A DNA stretch of 64,000 nt from the NCBI GenBank assembly GCA_023133595.1, contig JAGLWF010000001.1, forward strand, positions 33,693 to 97,692. The letters run 5' to 3'. This document shows positions 17,332-54,560 of this stretch, piece by piece. This DNA is from Nanobdellota archaeon (lineage in GTDB: Archaea; Nanobdellota; Nanobdellia; Woesearchaeales; WJKV01). The notes under the pieces are model-generated. The model saw nothing but the letters and a program-made list of their open reading frames with translations. It did not search any database and was not told the origin of the DNA. Both the position numbers and the translations under genes were made by a program. The number at the start of each line of letters is the position of its first letter. Position 1 is the first letter of the stretch.

Positions 17332-17333
17332 AG

Positions 17334-17969
17334 ATGGCAAAGAAGAAAGCAAAAAAAAGAGGAAAGAAAAGAAAAGTTTCTGATATTGATTATCCTCTAG
17401 AGTTCAGAAGAGCAGTATTCCATCTCTGCGCAGGGCTCCTAGTCATTATTCTTACTCTCTTGCTCACAAAAGATTTTGTCATTCCGCTTCTAGGAACAAT
17501 CATTGTGATTGGTATTCTTCTGAGCCTGTTATGCAGAAGATACAAGCTTCCTGTCATTGAAACATTCCTTACATACTTTGAGCGGAAAGAGCATCGGAAA
17601 GTACATCCTGGAAGAGGGCCGTTGTTATTACTTGTCGGATGTTTTATCGCACTATTCATTTTCGAGTATAATACTGCGCTTGCCGCGATCATGATATTAG
17701 CGATCGGTGATTCATTCACAAACATATTCGGACCTTTCGGTAAGATGAAGACCAAACTGCACAGAAAAAAATTCTTGGAAGGGACAATCGCAGGAATTAT
17801 CGGAGCCACACTTGGTGCAATGCTTTTTGTTCCATTCGGGATTGCTTTTGTAGCGACATTAGTTGCTATGTTTGCAGAGCTTGTCGATCTGGAAAAATAT
17901 TATCTTGATGACAATATACTTATTCCAGTGGTTGCAGGACTCATAATGACTCTGCTTCTTGCTATTTAG
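17334..17969 (+). CDS. CTP-transferase-family membrane protein (CarS/CDP-archaeol synthase- or dolichol-kinase-like) with a Lys-rich N-terminus
   Basis: GDSFTNIFGPFGKMKTKLHRKKFLEGTIAGIIG fits the GD...G...KK..EG...G pattern of CdsA/dolichol-kinase/CarS proteins. About 5 TM helices. N-terminus MAKKKAKKRGKKRK. Confidence 0.45.
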   Translation: MAKKKAKKRGKKRKVSDIDYPLEFRRAVFHLCAGLLVIILTLLLTKDFVIPLLGTIIVIGILLSLLCRRYKLPVIETFLTYFERKEHRKVHPGRGPLLLLVGCFIALFIFEYNTALAAIMILAIGDSFTNIFGPFGKMKTKLHRKKFLEGTIAGIIGATLGAMLFVPFGIAFVATLVAMFAELVDLEKYYLDDNILIPVVAGLIMTLLLAI

Positions 17970-22014: not shown

Positions 22015-22755
22015 ATGAGCAAACTATTCATTGTAACTGGACTTGACGGATTGATTGTAAATAGTGATATTTTCTCTAAAGCGCACGAAGCATGGTTTGA
22101 CCATTTTTGTGCTGTTCTTGGAGATGAAAGTTTCAAAGAATTGATGCATCAGCCGAACTATTGGGATGCTGTCTATGAGATAATGGAAAAACAGCTAGGA
22201 TTATCCCGAGAAATTCCTGAAGAGGCTGCAATGCTGCGAAAATTCGCAAGAGAGACATACAGGAGTCTTGTGATCAGATTTGCAGAGCAATACCGAAAAG
22301 AAGATATACTTTTGCCAGAGGAACATCGGGGAACAATTGATGTCCTTAAATCTCTAAAAGATAGAGCAACACTTATGTTATTAACAACAACTCCAGGAGA
22401 CGTGCTTCCCTTTATATTAAAAAAAATGGACTGTGAAGATTTGTATGATGATATTCTTTCAAGCAAACTTGATGCATATCCTTCTGCAGTTGAGATATAT
22501 GAAAAATTTAGGAATCGAGAGCTAAGACGAACAAGTATGACTCCAGAAATAAAACCAGATTGTTATATAGGAAGCAGCAAAAGGACAATTGAATATTTTA
22601 AAGGATTAGATGTTCCAACGGTATTTCCATCGTGGACTATGAGCGCTGAAGATCAGAGGGAAACTTGCGAAGCTTTTAGAATTGCGGATTATACTCCAAT
22701 AACAGCTTGTATGTTAAAGCAAGTTCTAGAAAATCTTCTCAAACCATCCCAGTAA
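22015..22755 (+). CDS. Hypothetical protein (possibly HAD-like hydrolase fold), on the strand opposite mre11 and herA
   Basis: Start moved to the ATG ([18 protein letters not shown]); the ORF-track N-terminus is implausible. Its ends overlap both flanking genes. Confidence 0.4.
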
Positions 22756-24250
22756 ATTCAGTCTTAACTTTTTTCTCTATCTTAGTATTCTTAACAAAGT
22801 CCGGGAAGAACGGAATCTTGATAGGTGTTGCGAAACGTGCAAAGTTGGATGTGACAATAGCTTCGCCTTTGTCCAATGATGCAATCGCCCTGCTGTCCTG
22901 TGAAAGGTCTTGTGAAGCAGATTCTATGATCGAACTTCTTTCTGGTGCCATCTCTATACCAAGGATGATCTTTGTATTCATGTTCGCCAAGATTGTTCTT
23001 GGAATAAGCGAAGGTAGCTGTGTGATCGCGCACAATCCGATCTGAAACTTTCTTCCTTCACGCGCGATTGTTGAAAAAATATTAGGTCCTGCTTCAAGTA
23101 CTTCTTTTCCAAGCACTCTTGGCGCTTCTTCAATTACAATAGAAATAACTGGTCTCTGTTTTAATTTTCCTGTTTTCAGGTAATATTTGTGTTTATCCAA
23201 TATTTTTGTTGCAATAAGTGATCCAATCAGAATCTCTGCACTGTCAGAGAAGGAAGATGTATCAATGATAACTGTCTTTGCCTGTTCAATCTGCTGTACA
23301 ATATCATTGACTGTGGTTTCACCAGCAATCCTGTCAAAGATCCCTTTAGAAACAAGGTCGCCATCAACAACTCTGATATCAAGAAGGTTTGACAATCTGC
23401 GCTTGATAACTCCAATTGTTGATTCATGAATATTCTCGCTTATGGTATGATCCAGCATGAATGCTTCGATCCATTTATCTCCATATTTCTTGTAACATAA
23501 AGCAAGAGCGTCACGCTGTGCATCTGTCCATGACAAAACACCGCGCAGATGTTCTGGTTCAACGCATTTCAGATTGATCTTAAGGGTATTGCATCCTGGG
23601 GGGGGATTGTTTGAATAGTAAGAAAGCTTTTTGCTTGGATGATCTTTTAGACCAAGATCATTTCTTCCGTAATATTCGTCGTGCGGATCCAGAACAAGAA
23701 AACCGCAATAATCTTTATCCATACAGCTCCATAAAATAACTCGCAATAAGTTTGATTTTCCTTTTCCAGTTGTTGCTGGTATTAAGATATGATGTGATAA
23801 AACTTCTTTTCCTGCAAGAGAGATCGGGACATCAAGAAGCTTGCTTCCGGAACGTAAATTTCCGATAAATAATGGATTTTGAGGTTCTGCGAGAAAACTA
23901 AGATCTTCTTTCTTGATTTCACGGACATGAGAAAAGAAATCAGGCAAAATCTTAGATGTTGAAGCATCTTTCTTGATCGTGATCAGATTTTTCAGCATTG
24001 CCAGCTTATAATTGCGTAATTTTGGGTCCATGAACTGAAAATCAGAGTTTTCTTCAAGATTTAGACCAGAAATTAATTCTAAGTTCTGCTGTGAGATCTG
24101 GGAACCATATAAAAGATCATAGACTTGAAGCAAAATCTTAGCATTTTCATTTTCTGCGACCAATAATTCTCCTAATTCAATGTTCTGGTCACTTTTCTGC
24201 CTAATGCATATCTCTCCGAACTTCCCAGAAATGACCTGCCCCAATATCAT
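22739..24250 (-). CDS. herA: HerA-type FtsK/HerA-family hexameric helicase/ATPase
   Basis: N-terminal beta-barrel-like region. Walker [11 protein letters not shown]. Walker [15 protein letters not shown] about 25 nt ahead of the ATG (leaderless). Confidence 0.8.
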
Positions 24251-24346: not shown

Positions 24347-24619
24347 TTATCTCCTTTTTCTCCTTCGAGTTGTTCTTCTCTTTGTAGTTTTTCTTTTGGT
24401 TGTTTTTCGCTTAGTTGTTCTTCTCTTTGCTGTTTTTCGCTTAGTTGTTTTTCGTTTAGTTACTTTTCTTTTGGTTTTTCTCTTTGTAGTTTTTCTTTTG
24501 GTTGTTTTTCGCTTAGTTGTTTTTCTCTTTACTGTTTTTCTTTTGGTTGTTTTTCTTTTCTTAGTTCTTCGCTTAGTTGTCTTTTTCTTTGCTGTTTTTC
24601 TTTTTCTTCGTGCTGCCAT
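24347..24619 (-). CDS. Small Lys/Arg/Thr-rich basic protein (KRKTTKRKT repeats); putative nucleic-acid/chromatin-binding protein
   Basis: Start at the ATG (MAARRKRK) with AAGGAGGTG 7 nt upstream. About 60% K+R. Built from imperfect tandem DNA repeats. A consensus BRE/TATA promoter lies upstream. Confidence 0.6.
   Translation of the reverse strand: MAARRKRKTAKKKTTKRRTKKRKTTKRKTVKRKTTKRKTTKRKTTKRKTKRKVTKRKTTKRKTAKRRTTKRKTTKRKTTKRRTTRRRKRR
24380..24600. repeat. Imperfect tandem repeats (~27-30 nt units) encoding TTKRKT-type repeats
   Basis: Units such as cgcttagttgtttttc and ctttggttgtttttc recur throughout the gene. Confidence 0.6.
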
Positions 24620-24715
24620 CGTAATAAGCACCTCCTTTTTTTAAAATTGAACCGGTATAAACATAATAGAACTCACTATTTTTAGTCCTCACCTCTGTTT
24701 TTAATCACCAGTTCT

Positions 24716-24760
24716 TTTAATTATTATATAAATACGAAAAACTCATATATAAATGTTTCG
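24716..24760 (-). promoter_or_regulatory. BRE/TATA promoter (cgaaacatttatata and tatttatata) driving the KR-rich protein gene
   Basis: Read on the minus strand. Matches the recurring motif cgaaacaTTTAtATA seen at six other gene starts in this window. Confidence 0.5.
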
Positions 24761-24868: not shown

Positions 24869-26011
24869 TTATTCAAGATTTTTTCGCACAGTTTCAAAAA
24901 AATCTTCGATCTTTTTCTCTTGTTCGAGCCTTCTTTTTCTTGTCGGAGATGTATATTCTCCTTCTTTACCATAATAATCTTCTAATTCCACGTCTTTTGT
25001 TTCTTCTTTTTTATCTTCTTCTTTCTTTTCCTTTTTCTCTTCTCGTGTTTCTTCCTCTTCTTCTTTTCTTCCTTTCCTCTCTCGATCTTCACTCTCTTTT
25101 TCAACTTCGCCTTCAGCTTCAAATAATTCTTTTTCTTCTATCTCTCTTGCACGTTCTGCCTGTTCTTCTTCTTCTTTTCTCTTGCGCCATCGTTCAAGCG
25201 CGATCTCTGCTGCACAATTATATGCAAAACCAAGAAGTGCTTTAGGATTATTGTCAGTTTCCTTGCATATTCGCTTCAATAAGCTCTCTGAAATCGGCTT
25301 GATATCTTTCCCACCAACAGATTCAATACGTTTCTTGATCATCTTTCGTAGATCAGGATATTTCATTCCTGAAAGTTCAATCTTAAGATGATCCAGCTTT
25401 GTGAAAGGTAAAAGTTCTTTTTTCTTCAAATCTTCTTTGCTCCCGTTTATGATTAATTGAAAATTTATGTTTGCTGTAAATAACTCTTTCAACAATAGTA
25501 AAGCTAAATCAGATATTTCACTGATATCATCAATCAAAAGTATCAGACGTTTATCTTTTGCAAGCTTATTTCGAAGATAATTAGTGACAGTGGCAATTGT
25601 CATTGTCTGCCATGGTTTTGTTATGAACCGTTCTAACGGGTTCATGACAGGTAATATTATCTGCTTGATCGCATGTTTCTCTCCTGTAAGTTTATTTCCA
25701 TGGATCATACGAGCCCGAACTTGTTTTTTATATTTTTTCAGTTCATACTCCATCCATTTCAATATTGTGCTCTTTCCAGAGCCAGGCGGGCCAGCAATGC
25801 TTCCAAAATTGAATTTTTTTATCACAAAAAGATTTATCTGCAGCCTGTCTTTATCATATCCAACTATAAAGTCTTCAATCGGCTTCAAAATCTTTGTCTC
25901 AAACGGATTTTTTGACCATTCGAACTCTTTATACCAGTCAAGCATGAACTGGTCTTTAGAAGTCTGTGATTTTTCTTCCTTGTCACCCAAGATCTTGATG
26001 CGTATGTTCAT
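24869..26011 (-). CDS. Orc1/Cdc6-like AAA+ ATPase with an acidic K/E-rich C-terminal tail (no winged-helix domain recognised)
   Basis: Start moved to MNIRIK, about 25 nt downstream of aacatttatatatg (leaderless). Walker A GPPGSGKST. Walker B LILLIDDISE. Lid-like NNPKALLGFAYNCAAEIA. About 110-aa E/K/R-rich tail. Confidence 0.6.
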   Translation of the reverse strand: MNIRIKILGDKEEKSQTSKDQFMLDWYKEFEWSKNPFETKILKPIEDFIVGYDKDRLQINLFVIKKFNFGSIAGPPGSGKSTILKWMEYELKKYKKQVRARMIHGNKLTGEKHAIKQIILPVMNPLERFITKPWQTMTIATVTNYLRNKLAKDKRLILLIDDISEISDLALLLLKELFTANINFQLIINGSKEDLKKKELLPFTKLDHLKIELSGMKYPDLRKMIKKRIESVGGKDIKPISESLLKRICKETDNNPKALLGFAYNCAAEIALERWRKRKEEEEQAERAREIEEKELFEAEGEVEKESEDRERKGRKEEEEETREEKKEKKEEDKKEETKDVELEDYYGKEGEYTSPTRKRRLEQEKKIEDFFETVRKNLE

Positions 26012-26102
26012 ATTAAAGTAATACATAAAGAATTCATATATAAATGTTGCCAGAGATATAGAAGGGTTTTTAAATTGGTTTGTTTCTCGGTTCTCAGGGA
26101 TT

Positions 26103-27203
26103 ATGAAAAAAAAACTTTTAGATCTTGTTGTATGCCCAATATGCAAAGGCAATCTAAATCTGATTATTTTCAAGACCGGAATAGGCAAAAATCCCGAAAT
26201 AATTGACGGTCTTCTCCATTGCAAGTGCAGCTCTTGGTACCCCATCATCAGAGGGATCCCTAGAATCTTGCCCATGCCTCTGCAAAAGAAGATTCTAAAG
26301 CAGGATTGGAGTAAATTTATCATGATATACAGAGAGAAGTTTCCTAAATCGATCGAATCAGAGTTCAAATCAGAATCAGACAGATTCGATCATGTCAAAA
26401 AAAAGACTGCACAAGCATGGGGGTATCAATGGACTTATTTTGATTATCTCATCAAAGAAAGCAAAGCCCAATTCCTAAAATTCCTGCGCCCAGTTAACAA
26501 AGAATTTTTCAGGAATAAACTTGTCCTGGATGCTGGCTGCGGCACTGGGAGGCACGTCTATTTTTCCAGTCTTTTTGGCGCTGAAACTATCGGACTGGAT
26601 CTAAGCTATGCTGTTGAAGCTGCTCAGAGATATAATAAAGATCCAAAGACTCACATTGTCCAGGCAGATATTTTCAACATGCCATTTAAGGACGGAACTT
26701 TTGATTATGCTTTTTCAATCGGTGTGCTTCATCATCTTCCAGATCCAGAAAAAGGATTTTCAGAGATGGTGAAAAAGATCAAAAGGAATGGTTCTGTTTC
26801 AGCATGGGTCTATGGAAAAGAAAATAATGAATTTATCACGCATATTATCGAACCATTAAGAAAGACTATAACTACAAATATGAACCTCAAAGTTTTGAAT
26901 GCCATCAGTTTTTTCATTACCATCCCTTATTTTTTATTGACAAAATTTGTCTATCGCCCTATAAATAAATTTGGATTGACCAAATCTATACTGAACATAC
27001 TGCCTTATTCAGAATATTTTTTACAGTTCTCTAATTTTAGCTTTAAACATCATTGGGTGAATGTCCTTGACAAGTTTGATGCCCCTCTTGCAAATTATTA
27101 TTCAAAAAAAGAATTTGAGCAATGGTTTGTCAGAGAAAAATTAAAAAACATATCTCTTCTTCCAGTTAATAACATCAGCTGGGCTGGTTATGGCAAAAAA
27201 TAA
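26103..27203 (+). CDS. SAM-dependent methyltransferase with an N-terminal Trm112-like zinc-ribbon domain
   Basis: LLDLVVCPICKGNL...LLHC (Trm112p-like). Motif I VLDAGCGTGRH. Motif post-I GLDLS. Confidence 0.65.
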   Translation: MKKKLLDLVVCPICKGNLNLIIFKTGIGKNPEIIDGLLHCKCSSWYPIIRGIPRILPMPLQKKILKQDWSKFIMIYREKFPKSIESEFKSESDRFDHVKKKTAQAWGYQWTYFDYLIKESKAQFLKFLRPVNKEFFRNKLVLDAGCGTGRHVYFSSLFGAETIGLDLSYAVEAAQRYNKDPKTHIVQADIFNMPFKDGTFDYAFSIGVLHHLPDPEKGFSEMVKKIKRNGSVSAWVYGKENNEFITHIIEPLRKTITTNMNLKVLNAISFFITIPYFLLTKFVYRPINKFGLTKSILNILPYSEYFLQFSNFSFKHHWVNVLDKFDAPLANYYSKKEFEQWFVREKLKNISLLPVNNISWAGYGKK

Positions 27204-30202: not shown

Positions 30203-30886
30203 ATGGGTAAAAAGAAAAAGATCAAAACAAAAACAAGTAAAAAGAGAAAAAGGAAATTTGAACGCCCTGCCTGGGTGCTTGCGGCAATTATATTTGCATC
30301 TGTCCTTCTGATCACACCATTTGAATTAATGCTTTATTTCAGACCACTATATCAGATACAGTTCGACAGTCTAGGTGTATATGATAAGCTTGGAAAGGAA
30401 AAAGCTGATTCAATGCTTTGGGATGTTCTTGAATTTATGGATGGACAAACAGATAGAATAGAAGATTTTTCAGACAAAGAGATCCTGCATATGATAGATG
30501 TACGAGATATCCTCGAAAAAATAATATGGATCTTCTTTCTCTTTAAGATATTTCAAATATTCTTATGGTTCTATCTCACCAGTATGAATAAGATAATGTC
30601 CTCTGTTTATTATGCAGGACTGATTGGAGTTTGTGTGATCGGAATCTTCTTGATCCTCTCCACTTGCTGTTTTAATTTCATGTTCAGTGGATTTCACGAG
30701 ATTTTCTTTTCGCAGGGAAATTATACATTTGATCCAGATTTCTCTTTGATGAAGACAATGTTTCCTGACAAGTTCTTCAGGAACTTTGCAATCATAAACG
30801 CTATCTTTTCTCTACTTATATCTCTTGGTGCAATGCTTGTCGGACATCTATATTTTAAGTACGTGGCCGTATCTACTCGAAAATAG
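30203..30886 (+). CDS. Integral membrane protein with a Lys-rich N-terminus
   Basis: 227 aa with 4 hydrophobic segments. N-terminus MGKKKKIKTKTSKKRKRK. Confidence 0.5.
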   Translation: MGKKKKIKTKTSKKRKRKFERPAWVLAAIIFASVLLITPFELMLYFRPLYQIQFDSLGVYDKLGKEKADSMLWDVLEFMDGQTDRIEDFSDKEILHMIDVRDILEKIIWIFFLFKIFQIFLWFYLTSMNKIMSSVYYAGLIGVCVIGIFLILSTCCFNFMFSGFHEIFFSQGNYTFDPDFSLMKTMFPDKFFRNFAIINAIFSLLISLGAMLVGHLYFKYVAVSTRK

Positions 30887-30910: not shown

Positions 30911-31555
30911 TTGTCAGAAAACATGATAGGTGTGTTTAGAAAATTAATAAATAAAGTATTCAAGAATCTGTTTAAAAGAAAAAAGCATCTCCGGATTGGA
31001 ATCTACGGTCCGCCAAACGCTGGAAAAACAACACTGGCGAACAAGATATGCAAGGATTGGCTCGGTGAAGAGATGGGTTCTACTTCTAGTATGCCGCACG
31101 AGACGCGCGAAATACAAATCAAAGAGCAGATCAACATCCAGAGCAATGGAAAAGAACTGAGTTTCAATCTTGTGGACACTCCTGGAATTGCAACAAAGAT
31201 AGATTACGAGGATTTTATGAAGAAAGGTTTAAATAAGAAGAAGGCTAAACTAAGAGCTAAAGAAGCTACAAAAGGCGTGATAGATGCGATCAAGTGGCTT
31301 GACGATATGGATACTGTTGTCGTAGTATTGGACTCGACCATTGATCCATATTCACAGGTTAATATCACAATTGTCGGTAATTTGCAGGCAAGGGATATCC
31401 CGGTTCTTATTGTAGCTAACAAGATTGATTTGAAGCGAAGCAATGTGAAGAAACTAGAAGCAGCCTTCCCTCAATATGATATTGTCGGAATAAGCGCACA
31501 GTACGGAAACAACATTGACAAGTTTTATAACGCATTGCTTACAACAGCTGAATAA
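30911..31555 (+). CDS. Small P-loop GTPase (G1 GPPNAGKTT, G3 DTPG, G4 NKID)
   Basis: Motifs read directly from the sequence. 214 aa. Confidence 0.7.
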   Translation: MSENMIGVFRKLINKVFKNLFKRKKHLRIGIYGPPNAGKTTLANKICKDWLGEEMGSTSSMPHETREIQIKEQINIQSNGKELSFNLVDTPGIATKIDYEDFMKKGLNKKKAKLRAKEATKGVIDAIKWLDDMDTVVVVLDSTIDPYSQVNITIVGNLQARDIPVLIVANKIDLKRSNVKKLEAAFPQYDIVGISAQYGNNIDKFYNALLTTAE

Positions 31556-31568
31556 AAAGAGGATAAAA

Positions 31569-31967
31569 ATGTTAACTCTACAATACGTCCCATTTGCAGA
31601 GATTGCTGGTCTGGATTCTGACGCGCGAATTAAGAAATTACTGAAACTGGCAAAGGATGAAAAGATTGTCCTTCTTGAGGGAAAACTGAAAAAAGAAGAA
31701 GAAACATATCTTATCCAAAAAACAATGGAAGCGATCGATGAATCATTTAAAGGAATCGAGATCGCATCGATCAATCCAAATGTCAAAGGACAAAAACCAT
31801 ATCATCTGATCAAGAATACTGTGATAAACCTGTTTCTCAGAGAGAGGACAGGAATAACAATCATCGGTCCTGCGACAATTATCAAACAAATAAAACGGGA
31901 TCCTGAAAAGATCCAGCTTCTGACAAAAAAAGCAAGGAAAAGAAGCAAACGAAAAAAGAAACAATAA
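31569..31967 (+). CDS. Small conserved-hypothetical protein (possibly DUF2073-like) with a basic tail, downstream of the GTPase
   Basis: Start moved to the ATG after AGAGGA. C-terminal KKARKRSKRKKKQ. Confidence 0.4.
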   Translation: MLTLQYVPFAEIAGLDSDARIKKLLKLAKDEKIVLLEGKLKKEEETYLIQKTMEAIDESFKGIEIASINPNVKGQKPYHLIKNTVINLFLRERTGITIIGPATIIKQIKRDPEKIQLLTKKARKRSKRKKKQ

Positions 31968-36754: not shown

Positions 36755-36824
36755 TTTCTTGTTTTGAATATTATTACTTCTTATCTATATTGGATGATAG
36801 AAAATGAAAGAATTCTTGTTGTAA

Positions 36825-36862
36825 GTTTGCCCCTTTGCGGGGCAGACTTAAAGATTTTTTTA
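36825..36862 (+). terminator. Hairpin (GUUUGCCCC-UUUGC-GGGGCAGAC) followed by a T7 tract
   Basis: 9-bp stem with one G-U pair, about 70 nt after the gatD stop, then ttaaagatttttttag. Confidence 0.5.
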
Positions 36863-37105
36863 GCGTCTCTATTTATCTTTTCTTTTTCTTCTTTTTCTTT
36901 TTGGTTGCTTTCTTTTTCTTTGCCATAACTATCACCTCAATTTGTATTTAAATATGTATAATTATATTTAAATGTTTCGAAAATTCGTATATGATTTCTA
37001 AAAACTATTAATCGTTTTGATTTTTTTCAGGATCAGAGCGAAAAAATCCGAAAACCAGAAGAAATTATCAAAATCTATATAAACAAGCAAATCTCATTGA
37101 AGATT

Positions 37106-43050: not shown

Positions 43051-43149
43051 GGTATTACACCCCCTTTTAGAGAAAAAATGTCCCTATAGTATATAAATGT
43101 TATGATAAGTTAGAGAAGAAAAAAGAAAAAAAATAAAGAGATTTTCTAT

Positions 43150-43635
43150 TTACCTTCTCCTCTTTTTTCTCTTGGTGGTTTTCTTTTTCTTCTTTACTTT
43201 CTTCTTTGTCTTTCGCTTTACTTTTCTCTTCTTCACTTTCTTCTTTGCTTTTCTCTTAGGTTTCTTCTTTGCCTTTCTCTTCTTCACTTTCTTCTTTGCT
43301 TTTCTCTTAGGTTTCTTTTTTGCTTTTCTCTTCTTCACTTTCTTCTTTGTCTTTCGCTTTACTTTTCTCTTCTTTGCCTTTTTCTTAGCTTTTTTCTTTC
43401 GTCGCTTTCCACCACGAGCCATCTTTACCATAGCTACATCTCCAGCTTTGTCGATGAAGTATAGATAGCCAGGTTTTCGCTTTACGCCAACTTTAGCAAC
43501 TATGGTTTGCCTCTGTTTGCCTTTTTTACCGCCACCTCTGGACATTTTAGCCATAGCTACATTTCCTCTCTTGTCCAAGAAGTAAAGGTATCCTTTTTTT
43601 CGTTTGACACCAACTTTTGCTACTTTTGTTGCCAT
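43150..43635 (-). CDS. Basic protein with a duplicated ~35-aa N-terminal motif (VAKVGVKRKxGYLYFxDKxGxVAMxKMxRGG) and a long Lys/Arg-rich tail; putative nucleoid/chromatin protein
   Basis: 161 aa. GAGGTGAT RBS. The tail contains the direct repeat KKKVKKRKAKKKPKRKAKKKVKKRK. A consensus promoter (aaacatttaaatatg) is at 43650-43690. Confidence 0.6.
   Translation of the reverse strand: MATKVAKVGVKRKKGYLYFLDKRGNVAMAKMSRGGGKKGKQRQTIVAKVGVKRKPGYLYFIDKAGDVAMVKMARGGKRRKKKAKKKAKKRKVKRKTKKKVKKRKAKKKPKRKAKKKVKKRKAKKKPKRKAKKKVKKRKVKRKTKKKVKKKKKTTKRKKRRR
43190..43400. repeat. Tandem DNA repeats encoding the KR-rich tail
   Basis: The ~54-nt unit tcttcactttcttctttgcttttctcttaggtttctt... occurs twice, with partial copies flanking. 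Confidence 0.6.
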
Positions 43636-43766
43636 TGGATATCACCTCTCAAATATATAAAAAACAGAAATCATATTTAAATGTTTTCCTTTTTTCTCGT
43701 CGAGCCCTCGTCGGAACACCGAGGAGATCTCGAGGAAGATTAGTAATTGCACGATAGTGTCAAAAA

Positions 43767-43901
43767 CGGACCTGGGGGGATTCGAACCCCCGACCTACAG
43801 CTTTCCACCAAAAAGTTAGGAGGCTGTTGCCCTATTTACCCTACCGGGCAAATCCGACAAATCCTGTCGAATTTGTAGTATCCAGGCTAGGCTACAGGTC
43901 C
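43767..43901 (-). tRNA. tRNA-Arg (anticodon CCU) containing two introns: ~46 nt in the D-loop and ~14 nt in the anticodon loop
   Basis: Acceptor GGACCUG/CAGGUCC with discriminator G. T-arm GGGGG-UUCGAAU-CCCCC. Variable loop AGGUC. Anticodon stem ACAGC/GCUGU enclosing CUCCUAA plus 14 nt. D-stem GCCU/GGGC separated by 55 nt. Total length 135 nt. Confidence 0.65.
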
Positions 43902-43935: not shown

Positions 43936-45300
43936 TTACCTCTTTTTTCGAGGCTTTTTCGCCTTTTTGACAAGCTTTTTCTTTGCTTTTGGCTTGACCT
44001 TTACTTTCTTCTTTTCTTTCTTTGCTTTGCCAATTACCTTGATTCCATTCATATAGGGCACTAAAACTGCTGGAACCTTGATTGTACTGTCTTTCTGCTG
44101 GTAATTCTCAAGAACAGCGACTAAGGCTCTTGATGTCGGAAGGGCGGTTGCATTCAGCGCGTGTACCAGAGCTTTCTGACCACCAACTCTTCCAGATTTT
44201 ATGTTCAATCGCCTGGTCTGATAATCTGTACAATTCGACGCAGAAAAGATCTCGCAATACTTTCCCTGGCGCGGAGACCAGTATTCAGTATCATACTTTT
44301 TTGCAGCAACCTGACCGAAATCTCCAGCACATACATTGACAACGCGATATGGAATCTTTAGCGCCCTCAGTATCCCTTCACCATTCTTTACTAATTCTTC
44401 ATGAAGCTTCCAGCTATCCTCTGGCTTGCATATTATCACCTGTTCAACTTTATTGAACTGGTGCGTCCTAAATAATCCTTTTGTATCGATTCCGCGAGAA
44501 CCGATCTCACGCCTGAAGCACATGCTATATCCTGTTAGCTTGATCGGAAGAGATTTGTCATCTATAACCTCGTTCATGTACTGCCCTACTAAAGGATGCT
44601 CTGAAGTAGCAATAAGATAAAGATCATTGCCATCAATCTTGTACATAACAGTCTCAAAGTCTCCTAGATCAACCACTCCTTCGTATGATTTACGATTCAT
44701 CATCAAAGGAGGCTCTACCAAGGTATATCCTTTTTTGATCATGAAATCTATTGTAAACCTCAATAATGCCTGATTCAACATTGCTAATCCTCCTTTCAGG
44801 AAATAGAAACCACGGCCAGCTAATTTTGCGCTTCTCTCAAAATCAAGGATGTTTAATTGCTCCCCAAGCTCGACATGATTTTTCAATGGAAATTTTGATT
44901 TCTTTGCAACACCCCATTTCCGCACTTCAACATTATCTGCATCATCCTTGCCATAAGGTACAGATTCGTGCAAAAGATTTGGAATAGCCATCATATCTGC
45001 TCGAATCTCCTTCCTAAGCTTCAGCTCTTTTGCATCTGCATCTATAATCTTCTTTGGAAGAGCTTTCATCTCTTTGATCTTTGTATCGATCTTCTTTCCT
45101 TTCTTCTTTAGTTCGCGGATCTCAAGTGTGATAGAATTCTTCTTGTGCCTCAATTGCTGAAGCCCGTATGTCAATTTGCGCCATTCTGCATCCTTTTTTC
45201 TGACATCATCAACTTTCTTCAGAAGTTCAGGTTGCTTTCTTTTTTTCAGGTTTTTCTTGACCTTTTCTGGCTCATTACGTATCAGATTTATGTCTATCAT
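43936..45300 (-). CDS. serS: Seryl-tRNA synthetase with a ~30-aa Lys-rich C-terminal extension
   Basis: N-terminal coiled-coil arm. Class II motifs (FRREIGS; GLFRTHQF). Tail GKAKKEKKKVKVKPKAKKKLVKKAKKPRKKR. Confidence 0.85.
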   Translation of the reverse strand: MIDINLIRNEPEKVKKNLKKRKQPELLKKVDDVRKKDAEWRKLTYGLQQLRHKKNSITLEIRELKKKGKKIDTKIKEMKALPKKIIDADAKELKLRKEIRADMMAIPNLLHESVPYGKDDADNVEVRKWGVAKKSKFPLKNHVELGEQLNILDFERSAKLAGRGFYFLKGGLAMLNQALLRFTIDFMIKKGYTLVEPPLMMNRKSYEGVVDLGDFETVMYKIDGNDLYLIATSEHPLVGQYMNEVIDDKSLPIKLTGYSMCFRREIGSRGIDTKGLFRTHQFNKVEQVIICKPEDSWKLHEELVKNGEGILRALKIPYRVVNVCAGDFGQVAAKKYDTEYWSPRQGKYCEIFSASNCTDYQTRRLNIKSGRVGGQKALVHALNATALPTSRALVAVLENYQQKDSTIKVPAVLVPYMNGIKVIGKAKKEKKKVKVKPKAKKKLVKKAKKPRKKR

Positions 45301-48090: not shown

Positions 48091-48257
48091 GCAGGCAGAA
48101 ATGTTGTCTCCCATATGGGATTAACGTGTGCCTATTATAGAGTGGCAAATCTAGCGAAACCTTTAAATAATAATTGCTACTTCTTAATGCTAACACAGTC
48201 GTATCTGCGAAGGGGTTGAGCGGCTGAAAATCGATAATGCTTTTTGGGGGTAAAAAA

Positions 48258-49751
48258 ATGGAACATATTCAACACGGATTATATTCGATGTTTGGTAGAG
48301 GTTATAATTTCTTAAAGAGAACTGGATTGGGTCTTGCTACAGGAATCGGTCTTGGAACTGTATTATTCTTTGGCAGTGCTGATGAAGCAAATGCCCAAGA
48401 TGTGGATCTTAGTGATCTGGTAGATGATGTTTTCAGAACAAAACAAACTCCTGAAGAATCTACCCCAAGTGTTAAAACTGAAAATCAGAGACGATTTTCA
48501 GAAGTATATGATGAGATGGATAGCAAAAGCGGACTTCAATACGGATATTTTGCAGAAGCGCGCGTGAAAGGATCAACAAACAGAGAAACAGAATATGACA
48601 GTTTCAGAGGCTCTATTGAAATAGGAAAATTCCTTTGGGGCGATAGCAAATGGAATGGAAGAGTTAAATTCGAATATAATGATACTGATGGAAGAGAAGA
48701 ATTCTTCGAAATTTCTGGAGGTGCAGATTATAGACTTTCTGATGCTCTTACAGCTGGATTCAAAGCATTTGGCGGAGACCATAGTATTGGTGGAGAAGGA
48801 AGAATAAGATTAACAATCGATCTTGGAAGCTATTTTAAAGATGCAACAGCAACTGTTTTTGGCAGAGCTGGTGGAAGCAATAGAGACGATAGAATAAGAA
48901 GCATAACACACAGTTTAATTGACAGTGATCAGGAAATCAGAGATGGATATGGTGAAATCGGACTGAAAGTAACCACAAAAAACGGTTCTTATTTCACAAT
49001 CTCAGATATTTACAAATGGATTCATTCTGAGATGTGGGCAAATATGCCAACAAGTGCTGATGCAGACATCGAAGTTGGAACCAATGCTTTGATAGCATCC
49101 CTCGGACATAAAGCAAAAGATTATTCTGTAGATTTTACAGGAATCTGGACACATACCAGGACAAATAATAAACTTAAAGTTGCAGATGCTATAGACGAAT
49201 CTGAACTCTTAAGAGGACAGGCAACTGGATTCTACCATCTAAGAGGAAAAGGCCATAGTGTTGGTCTAATGGTTGGTGGAGACAAGAACGGCTGGGATGT
49301 CAGAGGTATTTACATTTTCCAAGACAATAAATCTGCAAGCATTGCAAAAGAGCTTGAAAAATTAAAGACAGAAACAGATGCGATCTCAAAAGAAGAGATC
49401 CAGAACAGACTGGAAAAATTATCACTTGTCAGCGCACTGGTTCACAAAGTTGAAGTTGGTGGGCGAAGAAGTGAAGTTTCAGGTGCTCGTAGCTGGGAAG
49501 CTTTTGCAGGATACGAACTGACTCTAAGTATGAACAGCAAGTTCGTCAAGCAATTCAATCTAGATTTTGAATTGACGTATGGAGAACTGTATCCAACATA
49601 CGGATCGCACAGAGGCTATTTCAGAGGAAGAGCAAATGCAGAAGCCCGATTCGGAAAAGGCTGGTACCTGCTTGGAGGCGCTAACGGAAATTCATACGAG
49701 GGCCAGAAGCCAAGCTGGAACTTTGAAGGCGGCTTTGGAAAACGGTTTTAG
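48258..49751 (+). CDS. Secreted beta-strand-rich protein with amphipathic alternating patterns and a C-terminal Phe (outer-membrane-protein-like beta-barrel candidate)
   Basis: Signal peptide n-region MFGRGYNFLKR, h-region TGLGLATGIGLGTVLFF, c-region GSADEANA. Gly/Tyr/Asp/Arg-rich alternating hydrophobic pattern, e.g. RIRLTIDLGSYF, VDFTGIWTHT, FNLDFELTYGELY. Ends ...FEGGFGKRF. GGGGGT RBS. Confidence 0.5.
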   Translation: MEHIQHGLYSMFGRGYNFLKRTGLGLATGIGLGTVLFFGSADEANAQDVDLSDLVDDVFRTKQTPEESTPSVKTENQRRFSEVYDEMDSKSGLQYGYFAEARVKGSTNRETEYDSFRGSIEIGKFLWGDSKWNGRVKFEYNDTDGREEFFEISGGADYRLSDALTAGFKAFGGDHSIGGEGRIRLTIDLGSYFKDATATVFGRAGGSNRDDRIRSITHSLIDSDQEIRDGYGEIGLKVTTKNGSYFTISDIYKWIHSEMWANMPTSADADIEVGTNALIASLGHKAKDYSVDFTGIWTHTRTNNKLKVADAIDESELLRGQATGFYHLRGKGHSVGLMVGGDKNGWDVRGIYIFQDNKSASIAKELEKLKTETDAISKEEIQNRLEKLSLVSALVHKVEVGGRRSEVSGARSWEAFAGYELTLSMNSKFVKQFNLDFELTYGELYPTYGSHRGYFRGRANAEARFGKGWYLLGGANGNSYEGQKPSWNFEGGFGKRF

Positions 49752-49862
49752 ATTGACTATTATAGAGTAGTTAAAACTACGAAACATTTATATATTGAAT
49801 GCGATTGACTCGTATGATTTGAGGCATTTATGTTTAAAATAAACAATTGGGGGTAATATAAA

Positions 49863-51224
49863 ATGAAGCCACTTGATTTCATAGCGAAAACAACAAGAAT
49901 AGCAATACCTGTAGGATTAGGTTTAGCATTATCATTAGGAGGAACAGCTTTTGCAGGAGAAGGCCCAGCAGAAGAAAGAACTCCAAAGAAGTTCAAAGTT
50001 AAGATTAAGAAGAAAAAACCTGTAGAAAAACCAAAAGAAACTCCTAAAGAAACTCCAAAGGAAACTCCTAAAGAGACACCAAAGGAAACTCCAAAGGAGA
50101 TACCAAAAGATTTAGGATATCATGTTTTCAAAGTATTTGGAGAAGAGATTGATGGAAATGAAAAAGATTATGTTCCAGCTCTAGAAAAATTTAGAGAAGA
50201 AATCGTAAAATTAACAAAAGGAACAGAAAATTGTCCAGATGGAGAGTTTCAATTCTACAAGTTTAAACTGGCAAAAGAGGGTGTACGGCTTGAGATCCAT
50301 CATAAAAAAGGTGACAAAACTGTTGTATATACTAATGGTCTTAAGAAAGGAGATTGGGAAGCTATCAGGTCTGCAATTGAATTAGGAGAGAAGACAGCAA
50401 CAAGAATTGAAAAAGAAGTTGAAGGCAAGAAAAAGAGCTTTGTTCTTCCAAGAGAGATCAGTGATTGTGCTGATGTAGAGATTATCGGAGATAAAGCATA
50501 CTTGAAGTTCAAGAATCTTCCTGGTTTCAGAGCAAATGGTTCTTACGAACTTAATGCAAGACTTGCAGCTGAATACATTGGATTATCATTTGCAGAAGAC
50601 AGTCTTATGAAATTAGACAAAGAAGCAAGAGCTGCAAAGATCAAGAAACTAAGAGCGCTTTACGATACACTGACAAAAGTAAGATTCGGTGTAAATGAAA
50701 AAGGAGAATATTCACTAGAGATGTACCAGACAGGAAAAGAAGAACCTACTGTTGTTCCATTGAACAGAGAAGCAGTTTCAACTTTCCTTGAAAGAGTTAA
50801 AAGAGTTGGACAGTGGAAACAAGTGAAAGAAGCAGAATACAAGAAAGCTGGTAACTCCTTGAAACAAAAAGATGATCACAAAAGTCCAGGCACAGAGTTT
50901 GGAAAACGTAATGAAGACATGTTAGTCATAGGAGACGAATATGTTTGGTCTGATCTTCTAGCAGTTGCTAATGAAGATGCAGATGTCAAATATGTTGTTG
51001 GACTAATGAAAAAGCTTCAGAATTCAAAATGGACTGCTGGAAAAGAACTGCAGATAAGAAGAGATAAGAATCCAGTTGATGAAGCTCGAAGTGTATTCCA
51101 CTTCAAAGCAGGCGATAAGGATGACTGGCACGAGTTCAGACTGCCGCAAGCAGAAAAATTCAATGCTGGTTACAAGAAGCTGGTAGGGCTTTACAAACCT
51201 GCAGAAGAAAAATCAAAAGATTAG
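49863..51224 (+). CDS. Secreted protein with a (KETP)n tandem repeat linker
   Basis: Signal peptide IAIPVGLGLALSLGGTAFA. Linker KETPKETPKETPKETPKETPKEIPK. GGGGGTAA RBS. Consensus promoter cgaaacatttatatat about 70 nt upstream. Confidence 0.6.
   Translation: MKPLDFIAKTTRIAIPVGLGLALSLGGTAFAGEGPAEERTPKKFKVKIKKKKPVEKPKETPKETPKETPKETPKETPKEIPKDLGYHVFKVFGEEIDGNEKDYVPALEKFREEIVKLTKGTENCPDGEFQFYKFKLAKEGVRLEIHHKKGDKTVVYTNGLKKGDWEAIRSAIELGEKTATRIEKEVEGKKKSFVLPREISDCADVEIIGDKAYLKFKNLPGFRANGSYELNARLAAEYIGLSFAEDSLMKLDKEARAAKIKKLRALYDTLTKVRFGVNEKGEYSLEMYQTGKEEPTVVPLNREAVSTFLERVKRVGQWKQVKEAEYKKAGNSLKQKDDHKSPGTEFGKRNEDMLVIGDEYVWSDLLAVANEDADVKYVVGLMKKLQNSKWTAGKELQIRRDKNPVDEARSVFHFKAGDKDDWHEFRLPQAEKFNAGYKKLVGLYKPAEEKSKD
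50031..50109 (+). repeat. 6-7 tandem copies of a 12-nt unit (ccaaaggaaact) encoding KETP
   Basis: Direct read. Confidence 0.7.
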
Positions 51225-51264
51225 ATTTCAAAATTGTAAAAAAGAAATAAGGGGGAAAATTATA

Positions 51265-53019
51265 ATGAAGAAAACTATTTTCGCAACAATCTTGGTTTTT
51301 ATGCTATTGGTACAAATAGTTCCAGTATTGGCAGATAATTATGCGCCTATTGTTACCATAATCACATCTGCAGATCATGGAGAAACACCAATGTCTGTTT
51401 TCTTTACATCTCATGTAATTGATGAAAATCCAGACGCACTAGAATATTCATGGGATTTTGGAGACGGAGCAACTTCTGATTCAGAGGATGGCTTTAACAT
51501 CTATATGATTTCAGGAACATACACTGTTACATTATCAGTACGAGATGACACTGGAAATATAGGAATGGACCAAGCTACAATTGTTGTCGAAGAAGAAAGC
51601 ATAAACAATTATGCACCTATTGTAAATATTCTTCCAAGCCAGAAAAAAGGCAATGCACCTTTATCTGTTGCATTCACAGCAGCTATCATTGATGAAAATC
51701 CAGAGACGCTACAATACTCATGGGATTTCGGAGATGGAGCAACATCAGATTTTGAAGATACTATTAATACATACATGATCCCTGGAACATACACAGTCAC
51801 TCTAATGGTTAGAGATGATAATGGGAACATAGGAATAGACCAGGTTGAGATTGTTGTTGAAGATAAAACAAACACACCTCCAGTTGCTACTATAGTCGCA
51901 AGTCCTGTTTATGGAGGAGCGCCATTGAATGTTATTTTCAATGGAGAAGCTAGCATAGATGCTGATGGTGACTTCCTTACATTTACATGGGATTTTGGAG
52001 ATGGTGAAGGAAGCTCAGACAGAATGCCAGTTCATACTTACACAAGTCAAGGAACTTACATTGCAACACTTACTGTAGACGATGGACACAGAGCAAGATC
52101 AACTGATACAGAATTGATTGTTGTTGGAAACACATTCAATGTTCCACCAATCGCTATTGCAGATGCAATTCCAAGATCAGGAAACGTGCCTCTTGTTGTA
52201 ACATTCCTTGGACAAGGAATTGATACTGATGGAGAAATCGAAAGATACTTCTGGGATTTTGGAGATGGTACTACATCTGATTCACAGAACCCGGTCCATA
52301 CTTATGCGATCGAAGGAACTTTCAGAGCAGAACTTATTGTTTATGACGATTTTGGAGGAATTGGAAAAGACGAGATCCTAATCACAGTTGGTTCTCCAGC
52401 TGGAGTTGATCCATTCATTACACCAATCCCAGACCAGACAATCGAATTCAATCAACCATACAATTACCAAGTTGTTGCATTCGATCCATTAAATGATCAA
52501 CTGACATATGCAATGACAAACCAACCAGCTGGTGTTGACATTGATCCAAATACTGGTTTGATCAGTGGATTCCCAAGCCAGCTAGGAATTTTCAATGTTG
52601 CTGTTATTGTCAGCGATGACAATGGCGGAGAAGCAAGAGACGAGTTTATGCTTGAAGTTGTAGTTGTGCAGATCATTGAAAAGCCTAAGAAATACAGGCC
52701 AAGCTTGCTTTCAGTTGACAGAATCTTCCTGACAAGCGGAGAAATCCTAACTGTCAATGACTTGATCGAAGCTGGAGTTTTGGTCAATAACGATGCAGAC
52801 TTTGATATGGAGAATATCAAAGTGACTGTATCAGTTCCAGAACTGGGGTTATACGGTTCAAGCTTAATCGAGGATCTTGACAACAATAGGGATTATCTTG
52901 CAAAGATTGCAATCATCGACCCTATTCCGCAAGGAGTAAAGGGAGATTTCATTGTTAGAATCACTGTAAGCAATGATCATCTTAGAAGGATACTCCACAG
53001 AGAGATCACTGTAATTTAA
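51265..53019 (+). CDS. Secreted protein with four PKD-type domains plus additional beta domains
   Basis: Signal peptide. Repeated YSWDFGDGATSD...GTYTVTL.VRDD.GN blocks (four times), the classic WDFGDG PKD motif. Confidence 0.8.
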   Translation: MKKTIFATILVFMLLVQIVPVLADNYAPIVTIITSADHGETPMSVFFTSHVIDENPDALEYSWDFGDGATSDSEDGFNIYMISGTYTVTLSVRDDTGNIGMDQATIVVEEESINNYAPIVNILPSQKKGNAPLSVAFTAAIIDENPETLQYSWDFGDGATSDFEDTINTYMIPGTYTVTLMVRDDNGNIGIDQVEIVVEDKTNTPPVATIVASPVYGGAPLNVIFNGEASIDADGDFLTFTWDFGDGEGSSDRMPVHTYTSQGTYIATLTVDDGHRARSTDTELIVVGNTFNVPPIAIADAIPRSGNVPLVVTFLGQGIDTDGEIERYFWDFGDGTTSDSQNPVHTYAIEGTFRAELIVYDDFGGIGKDEILITVGSPAGVDPFITPIPDQTIEFNQPYNYQVVAFDPLNDQLTYAMTNQPAGVDIDPNTGLISGFPSQLGIFNVAVIVSDDNGGEARDEFMLEVVVVQIIEKPKKYRPSLLSVDRIFLTSGEILTVNDLIEAGVLVNNDADFDMENIKVTVSVPELGLYGSSLIEDLDNNRDYLAKIAIIDPIPQGVKGDFIVRITVSNDHLRRILHREITVI

Positions 53020-53064
53020 TGTTAACAAAATACTGTTCCAAGAGAATAGTATTTGTCAAAGAAA

Positions 53065-53117
53065 CCTTCCCAGAGTGCTCAGAATATGAGGACTTTATGT
53101 TCCCTGCTTTGGGAAGG
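53065..53117 (+). other. Stable hairpin (11-bp stem CCUUCCCAGAG/CUUUGGGAAGG, 31-nt loop) 45 nt after the PKD gene stop
   Basis: Direct read. One G-U pair. No T-tract follows, so it is not a classic terminator. Confidence 0.45.
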
Positions 53118-53285
53118 AAGCTTGAGTGAAGTTGTGATTTGTAGTCACTGCGAAATACTAAATAAATCGAAAGATTTATATACTGCTTTGATTACTGATG
53201 AATAATAACACTTAAGATCAAAAGAACCTTTTATCGGGGGTAAAGGGAATCAAGTCCAAAAAGGAATTTCGGAGGAAAATATAAA

Positions 53286-54560
53286 ATGGAGACAAAGAAA
53301 ACTGCTGTTTTAGGCATTTTAGCACTATTAGTCTTTAGTATGGTAGCTTTAGTTTCTTTATCAGCTACTGTTTCAGCAGTTCCTGTTGCAGTTGATTTTG
53401 TAAAAATCGACGGTGATATTGTTTCAGGAAATGAACTTATCGAGGTAGACAGGAACACAAACCTTGACATCAAGGTTAAATTGCTTGCTTTGGCAAACGC
53501 AGAAGACGTTAGAGTCGAAGCAATGATTCAAGGATTCGAGCACGGAGTAATATCTGATGAATCTGACATCTTTGACATCGACGCTGGCAAGACATACACA
53601 AAGAAACTTTCAATGCATCTTCCAGATGAAATGGAAAGAAACAACTACATGTTAAGAATAATCATAAGCGACAGAGACAGTGAATTATTCCAACAAAACT
53701 ACAATCTTGACATTGACACTGCAAGACACGCATTGAAGATTGAAGACGTTGCTTTCAGTCCTGGAACAGAAATCCAAGCAGGTAGATCCTTGCTTACGAC
53801 TGTTCGCCTTGAAAACAAGGGAGAACAAGACGAAGAAGTAAAAGTAACTGTTGCAATTCCAGATCTAGGAATCCAGCAATCAGACTTCATTGATGAAGTT
53901 GAGAGCGATGAAACAGTTACATCTGAGGAACTGTTCCTTAGAATACCAGCATGTACAGCACCTGGTCAGTACACAGCTGAAATCACATTGTCCTACAATG
54001 ACGATTTTGACAGTGTATCAGAACAGAGAACAATCACTGTTATAGACGGTGGTCTTTGCAATGTACAAGCTGCTCCGCAAGCAGATAAGACACTTATCGC
54101 AATTGCAACAGAAGGAAACGCAAACATCAAAATTGGTCAAAAAGCAATCTATCCAGTTACATTAACAAATGCAGCTGGAGAAGCTAAGATCTACTCAATC
54201 GCAGTAGACGGTGCTGATTGGGCAACTGTTGAGGTAAGCCCTTCAAATGTTGTTGCTTTAGCTCCTGGTGAGATCAAGACTACATTCGTAGCTCTAACAC
54301 CTAACGAGGGCACAAGCGGAACACAACTATTCAACATTAACATCAAAGCTGGCGAAGAGACACTTAAACAAGTGAACATGTCAACAAATGTTGAAGCTGG
54401 TCAAGCGAAATCAACCCTAGTAAGAGGCCTTACAATCGGTCTGATAATCATCATAGTTATCCTAGTTATCCTAGGATTAATCCTTGCATTCAGCAGAATG
54501 AAAGGCGGAAATGATGACTTTGAAGATTTCGAAGACGAAGGTCAAAAAACTTACTACTAA
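53286..54560 (+). CDS. Surface (S-layer-like) protein: signal peptide, Ig-like beta domains, C-terminal TM anchor and a short acidic tail ending YY
   Basis: Paralog of the 54833-56095 protein: shared blocks NYNLDID, SLLTT and the TLTNAG..AK.Y.I...D.DWA block, plus the same topology. GGAGG RBS. Confidence 0.6.
   Translation: METKKTAVLGILALLVFSMVALVSLSATVSAVPVAVDFVKIDGDIVSGNELIEVDRNTNLDIKVKLLALANAEDVRVEAMIQGFEHGVISDESDIFDIDAGKTYTKKLSMHLPDEMERNNYMLRIIISDRDSELFQQNYNLDIDTARHALKIEDVAFSPGTEIQAGRSLLTTVRLENKGEQDEEVKVTVAIPDLGIQQSDFIDEVESDETVTSEELFLRIPACTAPGQYTAEITLSYNDDFDSVSEQRTITVIDGGLCNVQAAPQADKTLIAIATEGNANIKIGQKAIYPVTLTNAAGEAKIYSIAVDGADWATVEVSPSNVVALAPGEIKTTFVALTPNEGTSGTQLFNINIKAGEETLKQVNMSTNVEAGQAKSTLVRGLTIGLIIIIVILVILGLILAFSRMKGGNDDFEDFEDEGQKTYY

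Follow-up and report, generated by a model that had tools for sequence, protein, structure and literature searches.

The gene and its expression signals

The DNA analysed here (the window) is a stretch of 64,000 nucleotides from a Nanobdellota archaeon (GenBank assembly GCA_023133595.1, contig JAGLWF010000001.1, positions 33,693 to 97,692 of the forward strand), the archaeal nature of which follows from the presence of gatD and gatE. On its minus strand it encodes a strongly basic protein of 161 amino acids (aa), composed of a duplicated globular module and a long tail rich in lysine and arginine. The open reading frame (ORF) and its sequence, as given in an initial annotation which regarded the product as a candidate novel nucleoid protein, agree with the ORF list. 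The features of the gene, in window coordinates, are the following:

43150 to 43635, minus strand: gene of the 161-aa basic protein, from the ORF list; the same product is called in the NCBI and ENA assemblies
43674 to 43687, minus strand: promoter box AAAACATTTAAATA resembling a B-recognition element (BRE) and TATA box, 39 nt upstream of the ATG (motif search)
43642 to 43648, minus strand: Shine-Dalgarno (SD) sequence GAGGTGA, 6 nt before the ATG (from the sequence)
43117 to 43138, minus strand: T-rich tract directly 3' of the stop codon, a putative archaeal-type terminator signal (from the sequence)
43525 to 43629, minus strand: repeat 1 of the module, residues 3-37 (AlphaFold strands 3-6, 16-20 and 26-30; DNA direct repeat)
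43402 to 43506, minus strand: repeat 2 of the module, residues 44-78 (AlphaFold strands 44-47, 57-61 and 67-71; DNA direct repeat)
43153 to 43395, minus strand: polycationic tail, residues 81-161, with 63 Lys/Arg in 81 residues (78%) and no acidic residue (composition and tandem repeats)

The protein has a mass of 18.9 kDa and an isoelectric point (pI) of about 12, and contains 68 lysines, 20 arginines and three acidic residues; the stop codon occupies 43150-43152. Since the gene has a promoter box, an SD and a T-tract of its own, and since the gene downstream of the T-tract has in turn its own TATA box and SD, it forms a single-gene unit, next to a tRNA-like gene and to serS in the window. 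The near-consensus BRE/TATA box and the strong SD suggest that the protein is probably abundant; a strong SD is likewise found in almost all homologous loci of the family described below. The ORF is real: an identical product occurs in two separate records, NCBI GCA_030630885.1 (contig DAOVMF010000002.1) and ENA ERZ23498665, and relatives in other metagenome-assembled genomes (MAGs) carry comparable tails, so that an assembly artefact, which the initial annotation had named as a possible refutation, does not account for the repeats.

A two-repeat module

Residues 3-40 and 44-81 of the protein are about 74% identical, and the duplication is equally evident in the DNA, where the two copies, 123 nt (41 codons) apart, are 73% identical over 99 nt; the duplicated motif, earlier taken to span about 35 residues, is therefore present, with a period of 41 residues. 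Each copy contains the conserved beta unit G-Y-L-Y-F-x-D-K-x-G-D/N-V-x-x-A-K-M-x-R-G-G. In an alignment of 57 sequences from five phylum-level groups and two domains of life, 12 positions are invariant, namely G15, L17, Y18, K22, G24 and M31 in repeat 1, and G50, G56, L58, Y59, G65 and M72 in repeat 2; each repeat closes with a conserved M-x-R-G-G followed by basic residues.

The module alone (80 residues) has a pI of 11.2. AlphaFold predicts it to be all-beta, in the form of two three-stranded meanders, with a predicted local distance difference test (pLDDT) score of about 90-93 over repeat 1; no solved structural neighbour was found for the predicted module fold.

A large cross-domain family

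On sequence grounds the module is representative of a large, unannotated family crossing the domains of life, of which the window protein is an unusually long-tailed member. With residues 1-80 as the query, 3,578 clusters at 90% identity were obtained (E <= 0.01), mostly of 77-85 aa, and all those with a source name are labelled "hypothetical protein"; an exhaustive profile search over 1.84 billion representatives gave 1,243 clusters at 50% identity. The phylogenetic distribution, proposed earlier as a check, was obtained by scanning one genome per GTDB species, and relatives occur in at least 575 species of two domains, with a patchy spread across phyla and instances of multiple copies in one MAG. 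Archaeal hosts belong to the Woesearchaeota/Nanoarchaeota, bacterial ones to the Myxococcota, Omnitrophota, Marinimicrobia/Fidelibacterota, Planctomycetes, Elusimicrobiota, Nitrospirae, Dependentiae and Spirochaetes. The window protein is thus no oddity confined to the window; its description as small, basic and encoded by a single-gene unit stands.

All the members found come from MAGs of uncultured lineages. A second search, seeded with a Myxococcota member, yielded no cultured organism; collections of cultured phages and plasmids contained no homologue, and in IMG/VR only divergent copies were present, on 13 uncultured viral contigs. The literature searched for the module family contained no description of it, and a metatranscriptome paper on Woesearchaeota offered nothing at the level of single genes.

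Archaeal and bacterial modules are 56-65% identical. Among the 57 aligned sequences, mean identity is 63% between archaea and Omnitrophota and 67% within archaea, and such near-equal values across and within domains point to inter-domain transfer, to purifying selection of great strength, or to a combination of the two. Most members (about 80 aa) are free-standing and have neither a signal peptide nor a transmembrane segment; the number of repeats in relatives varies (2, 3, 4, 6 and more), with long linkers. The window protein and its closest relative (locus L009, in a Woesearchaeota MAG) are absent from the top 120 matches to residues 1-80 although their modules match the query at 100% and 76% identity; their low-complexity tails may be responsible, in which case hit lists under-represent long-tailed members.

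Gene neighbourhood is not conserved across lineages, synteny being lineage-specific, and linkage to tRNA genes is not general among family loci. In an Endomicrobium MAG the family gene adjoins rpmH-rnpA-yidD-yidC. A conserved gene of about 155 aa, without a Pfam match and absent from the window, lies upstream of the family gene and in the same orientation at about 15 loci of Woesearchaeota. Its product includes the sequence pieces …ITLRRYEKP…GLLQPGDSRDV…ASSNIRRQLKRL…, and a conserved hairpin (aagacg…cgtctt), then an A-rich box, separate it from the family gene. Its positions are:

about 3300-3900 in each of loci L003, L011, L012, L017-L022, L024, L026, L028, L029, L031, L033 and L053: gene of about 155 aa upstream of the family gene

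The polycationic tail

The tail of the window protein is made of units of about 17 residues, e.g. KRKAKKKVKKRKAKKKP, and is encoded by imperfect tandem DNA repeats with periods of 24, 27, 39 and 51 nt, together with a 102-nt direct-repeat family; all these periods are multiples of three, as expected from in-frame expansion of a coding repeat, and bear out the initial account of a basic tail derived from tandem DNA repeats. AlphaFold models residues 77-160 as one long helix with high pLDDT, a score which, for a segment with 78% Lys/Arg and no counter-charge, is not evidence of a stable isolated helix.

Among the 80 best genomic loci from the scan of one genome per GTDB species, 26 (about a third) encode proteins of 100-166 aa, in which the extra length is a basic, low-complexity C-terminal tail; more tailed members were seen among the cluster representatives. 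Tail composition follows genomic GC content: tails are K-rich in low-GC archaea (e.g. L009, L032, L051, L053 and L065) and R/A/T/P-rich in Myxococcota with 65-72% GC (e.g. L013, L016, L045, L081 and L084). The window tail is the longest and the most Lys/Arg-rich of those sampled. The closest comparison is with L009, where a tRNA-Arg gene lies just upstream of the family gene, in synteny with the window: its tail, also of about 80 residues, is built of KKTTKRK units instead of KRKAKKKVKKRKAKKKP, so that length and charge are kept while the sequence turns over. Long tails have been acquired independently and repeatedly within the family, and the recurrence of module plus polycationic tail in many lineages argues that the tail is functional.

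Comparison with known families and folds

Scans of the module and of 37 relatives against Pfam, NCBIfam and PHROGs gave no significant match, only sub-threshold, propeller-like ones. The Pfam family DUF5050 (PF16472) reached 15.6 bits (E 0.009) with the window protein, short of its gathering cut-off of 27 bits, and an E below 0.01 in only five of the 37 relatives (best E 0.0011); PF27482 (Beta-prop_YycP) is on record as a faint precomputed match in a few relatives and not in the window protein. Profile searches of all PDB chain sequences with two alignments returned nothing significant (E >= 0.27), and the choline/cell-wall-binding hairpin repeats of a PDB choline-binding protein showed a weak resemblance (E 0.44). 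DUF5050, PF27482 and the choline/cell-wall-binding repeats are the only families with any sequence signal. With beta-propeller blades the module shares a 41-residue period and an aromatic-L-Y-aromatic-x-D-x-x-G-x-[VI] core resembling the B-C hairpin of a blade; unlike propeller and wall-binding families, the 161-aa protein has only two repeats, is highly basic and cytoplasmic, and is predicted to have three strands per repeat.

Neither Pfam, NCBIfam nor the profiles of PDB chains, ribosome entries included, gave a significant match to a ribosomal or RNA-binding family; such a match had been named beforehand as an outcome that would speak against a nucleoid role. No known DNA-binding domain was detected in the 161-aa protein.

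Chromatin proteins of uncultured archaea and bacteria are, to our knowledge, known almost entirely through homology to histones, Alba and HU, and membership in the established classes was examined one class at a time. An archaeal histone, with its helix-strand-helix fold, is rejected, the module being predicted all-beta and having no Pfam match, and the window showing no tblastn similarity to HMfB. Alba, HU and MC1 are rejected for want of any Pfam or NCBIfam match, and Sso10b, HU-beta and MC1 as tblastn queries yielded nothing in the window at E <= 1. The earlier statement that the 64 kb hold no histone or Alba is thereby upheld for these queries, and it means little, the window being a small part of the genome. 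Sul7d and Cren7, small beta-sheet chromatin proteins with an SH3-like five-stranded barrel that are strongly expressed in their hosts, resemble the window protein in being small, basic, monomer-sized, all-beta and encoded by single genes in Crenarchaeota (Sul7d being represented by Sso7d/Sac7d). Profile comparison with Sso7d and Cren7 revealed no relationship, and the loose likeness to small beta-sheet DNA binders proposed at the outset finds no support in either profile or fold comparison.

In its overall build the protein resembles histone H1, the chlamydial Hc1/Hc2 proteins and the actinobacterial HU (HupB/MDP1, with its Lys/Ala/Pro-rich tail), which likewise join a long, low-complexity polycationic tail (in H1, the C-terminal domain) to a small globular module. 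In these proteins the tail evolves by repeat turnover with its charge kept, and its expected role is charge neutralisation and condensation. The winged-helix globular domain of histone H1 (GH1/GH5) is ruled out by the all-beta prediction; unlike the H1 winged helix or the HU fold, the globular part is predicted to be an all-beta tandem repeat for which there is no solved homologue. The Lys/Arg-rich, low-complexity tail notwithstanding, the protein has no match to Pfam HC2 or to the linker-histone family.

A further parallel is the candidate nucleoid-associated protein (NAP) WP_019177984.1 of Methanomassiliicoccus, a basic, lysine-rich and abundant protein of 74 aa with a predicted novel fold and with archaeal and bacterial homologues, which illustrates that such proteins can be major constituents of a proteome (PMC7613761). 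Its reported spread covers Methanomassiliicoccales, Sphingomonadales and Rhodobacterales (PMC7613761), taxa that do not overlap with those of the module family; the two were compared by description only and no relationship between them is claimed.

Possible functions of the module and its tail

The 161-aa protein is tentatively regarded as an architectural protein that coats nucleic acids, most likely a NAP, a reading to which we give somewhat less than an even chance. A globular module joined to a basic tail, encoded by a single-gene unit with strong signals for expression, would fit an H1-like NAP, and the extreme conservation of the module across domains fits a universal, invariant ligand. 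Hocher et al. (2022) used four operational criteria for NAPs: a size below 290 aa, a single-gene operon, a DNA-binding domain either known or predicted, and high abundance relative to transcription factors or enrichment in the nucleoid (PMC7613761). Two of the four, small size and the single-gene operon, apply to the 161-aa gene. Rare family members are fused to domains acting on DNA, namely an Mrr_cat restriction endonuclease and an HNH endonuclease (E 8e-32 and 1e-13, respectively). Also counted in favour are the size and charge of the protein, the repeated gain of polycationic tails in the family, and, for the KRKTT-type repeats of the 90-aa ORF described below, the HerA-type helicase gene directly downstream and the occurrence of such repeats elsewhere beside a weak SWIB-like domain or with a weak match to the chlamydial HC2.

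In such a protein, the compact, conserved all-beta module of two 41-residue, three-stranded meanders could offer a specific contact surface, formed by the G-[YW]-L-Y-[FY] strand and the invariant Met/Arg-Gly-Gly, while the 81-residue Lys/Arg tail would, in the manner of the C-terminal domain of histone H1, offset the charge of the phosphates and either condense the polymer or bridge it. The ligand would be DNA rather than RNA or another polyanion, and it is this ligand that the tail would condense. The 90-aa ORF of KRKTT-type repeats described below may then represent a free-standing polycation of the same tail type, and the 17-codon ORF either a micro-version or a non-functional frame. A bolder version of the same idea, and in our estimate a rather unlikely one, is that the two-repeat module defines a new cross-domain class of chromatin proteins, with a new DNA-binding fold and an H1-like condensing tail. 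Such proteins would be exchanged horizontally among uncultured lineages (DPANN archaea, Omnitrophota, Marinimicrobia, Dependentiae, Elusimicrobiota and uncultured Myxococcota), and would there be a major constituent of the nucleoid, whether next to histones or HU or in their place.

Several observations weigh against a nucleoid role. The module has no recognisable DNA-binding fold, and the fusion partners are mixed, including as they do HIT, ASCH, nitroreductase, DoxX and other membrane proteins, OmpA and GAF. All ten fusion proteins examined are singleton clusters at 90% identity, for which reason fusions carry little weight; some of them may be gene-calling artefacts. Woesearchaeota generally encode histones and Alba (PMC6136690), and there is thus no obvious vacancy for a further chromatin protein. 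Lastly, Lys-rich termini are common in this genome, and the polylysine may partly reflect a genomic tendency.

Side by side with the tail, other Lys/Arg-rich termini can be listed in the window: the C-terminus of seryl-tRNA synthetase (KKKVKVKPKAKKKLVKKAKKPRKKR; 43939-43983, minus strand), the N-termini of two probable membrane proteins (17331-17375 and 30209-30253, both plus strand), and the C-terminus of the ORF at 31515-31967 (31917-31961, plus strand). Polybasic appendages on ordinary proteins seem to be a genome-wide habit.

The protein might instead bind RNA or associate with the ribosome, e.g. as an RNA chaperone or as an accessory ribosomal protein; this is unlikely in our view. The module would recognise structured or single-stranded RNA through exposed aromatics and Arg-Gly-Gly, and the tail would have the role that basic extensions play in ribosomal proteins or in aminoacyl-tRNA synthetases of the eukaryote type. 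Such a role is consistent with the M-x-R-G-G and basic residues that end each repeat, with the rare ASCH and HIT fusions, with expression signals as strong as those of translation genes, and with location, both in the Endomicrobium MAG, next to rpmH-rnpA-yidD-yidC, and in the window, next to a tRNA-like gene and to serS, whose product has a Lys-rich tail too. It is at odds with the silence of Pfam, NCBIfam and the PDB-chain profiles on ribosomal or RNA-binding families; moreover, the patchy occurrence across phyla and the multiple copies per MAG are unlike those of core translation factors, neighbourhoods are not conserved across lineages, and linkage to tRNA genes is inconsistent. Far less probable is the binding of another polyanion or of an acidic membrane surface (polyphosphate, anionic phospholipids), module and tail acting as a peripheral anchor. 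The module does lie on the predicted cytoplasmic side of a DoxX fusion, of multi-transmembrane proteins, of an 886-aa single-pass protein with many repeats and of an OmpA-domain fusion, and the hairpin repeats that bind choline and cell walls bear the weak resemblance noted above; yet resemblances to wall-binding repeats are all below significance, most members, of about 80 aa, are free-standing and free of signal peptides and transmembrane segments, nuclease fusions exist as well, and a tail of 81 residues with 78% Lys/Arg far exceeds the polybasic patches that typically anchor proteins to membranes.

A structural alternative, compatible with any of these functions and judged improbable, is that the module (82 residues) represents two blades out of a beta-propeller and is functional only as an oligomeric ring (e.g. 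a trimer with six blades) from which the tails radiate. The 41-residue period equals the typical length of a blade, the sole sequence similarities are to propeller families (DUF5050 and, faintly, PF27482), and Foldseek lists the self-assembling propeller fragment 2yms; on the other hand, AlphaFold gives three strands per repeat and not four, all scores are far below significance, and the variable number of repeats in relatives, with their long linkers, is ill-suited to a closed ring.

If the nucleoid-associated reading is correct, the module would be a new fold among the few represented in nucleoid architectural proteins, and charge-driven condensation could be studied on tails that, within the family, naturally range from 5 to about 90 residues. 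New in fold and ancestry, the protein resembles in kind the known small basic nucleoid proteins with H1-like tails. If the protein binds RNA or the ribosome, it would still be a strongly conserved, probably abundant and unannotated component of many candidate-phylum cells. On either reading its heterologous expression and the determination of its structure would be worthwhile.

Two accessory open reading frames

Two further ORFs of the window had been grouped with the 161-aa gene:

24347 to 24619, minus strand: 90-aa ORF with (K/R)RKTT-type repeats throughout and nothing else; the ENA assembly lists it as a gene
24629 to 24635, minus strand: SD GGAGGTG of the 90-aa ORF (from the sequence)
24746 to 24759, minus strand: perfect copy of the promoter motif, at a distance of about 125 nt on the upstream side of the 90-aa ORF (motif search)
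36873 to 36926, minus strand: putative 17-codon ORF MAKKKKATKKKKKKKKR, located between gatD and gatE, which are encoded on the other strand
36932 to 36938, minus strand: SD GAGGTGA of the 17-codon ORF (from the sequence)
36965 to 36978, minus strand: promoter box of the 17-codon ORF (motif search)

The longer of the two is indeed tail-only, as had been said: 57 of its 90 residues are basic (32 K and 25 R), its pI is about 12, and a 15-nt unit occurs 16 times. In its leader lie another GAGGTGA and a mini-ORF of 7 codons; the 90-aa ORF is plausibly expressed. It lies 97 nt upstream of a same-strand gene for a HerA-type helicase (DUF87 in Pfam; 22739-24250), with a gene for a phosphoesterase of the Metallophos family (20743-21939) further along the strand, and is flanked on its other side by a gene for an AAA_22/STAND-like ATPase (24869-26368). 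Within the window, GC content is lowest (0.33), and AT skew most strongly negative, in the region at 24-26 kb.

The tail of L009 is of the same KRKTT type as the 90-aa ORF. A truncated paralogue is nonetheless rejected as its origin: the DNA similarity to the L009 tail, of about 70%, occurs in many registers and is compositional only, and upstream of the ORF there is no remnant of the module. Searches for homologues gave only eight matches at E <= 1e-3, all of them repeat tracts on other domains and none free-standing. KRKTT/KRKTA tracts occur in the database proteins P0391/P0393/P0396 and P0392; in one group of proteins such tracts are fused to a short SWIB-like segment at the C-terminus (Pfam SWIB, with an E of 1e-3 that falls below the cut-off), in another to DUF1508, and the repeat of the latter group weakly matches the chlamydial histone-like HC2.

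The 17-codon ORF does exist, with its GAGGTGA and TATA box, at a position 11 nt away from that given earlier (36884-36937), and the spacing of promoter, SD and ATG is identical to that of the 161-aa gene. Its description as a remnant, and with it a common origin of the three genes, is not demonstrated, the shared upstream sequence being generic. Between the end of gatD and that of the 17-codon ORF, a GC-rich hairpin (GCCCCGCAAAGGGGC, 36822-36845) could serve as a terminator for both convergent units.

It is quite possible, if on the whole doubtful, that neither ORF encodes a functional protein and that both are chance frames in purine-rich tandem repeats or decaying fragments. The 90-aa ORF, with no free-standing homologue, was returned only by the ENA assembly, an NCBI call not having been seen; the 17-codon ORF is too short for a homology test, and the sequences shared upstream amount to generic promoter and ribosome-binding elements. 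Set against this, each of the two ORFs is preceded by a consensus promoter box and, at canonical spacing, by an SD, the 15-nt period of the longer one is in frame, and the same KRKTT-type tail is borne by L009, a bona fide member of the family.

The promoter motif and other features of the window

With one mismatch allowed, the promoter motif GAAACATTTAWATA occurs nine times in the window, against an expectation of 0.15. The layout of TATA box, about 14 nt, TATATA, SD and ATG precedes, in addition to the genes above, at least six others, including those of probable surface proteins; shared as it is by unrelated genes, it marks strongly expressed genes in general and not a regulon of basic proteins. 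The BRE/TATA-like box and the ribosome-binding site previously singled out as the strongest promoter consensus of the window are thus present at all three genes and are generic in the organism, and the proposal that the three upstream regions are paralogous is rejected, unrelated genes having the same layout.

Within 48156-54560 on the plus strand, three consecutive large genes (48237-49751, 49863-51224 and 53286-54560) each have a near-consensus promoter. The second encodes PKETPKET repeats and the third Ig-like domains, two of the three have no Pfam match, and the trio (48237-54560) probably encodes abundant surface or S-layer-type proteins.

The tRNA-like gene between serS and the basic-protein gene (43766-43901, minus strand) was missed by ARAGORN, intron search included, and by Rfam at the gathering score. 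Its T-arm, 3' acceptor strand and anticodon arm align to the tRNA-Arg(CCT) called by ARAGORN at the syntenic position of L009. In the window copy, 13 nt are inserted at the canonical intron position, and about 46 extra nucleotides on the 5' side provide a second, perfectly complementary acceptor strand, GGACCTG, in addition to the L009-like GGATTTG; this extra 5' part may represent a D-arm intron or else an alternative 5' half.

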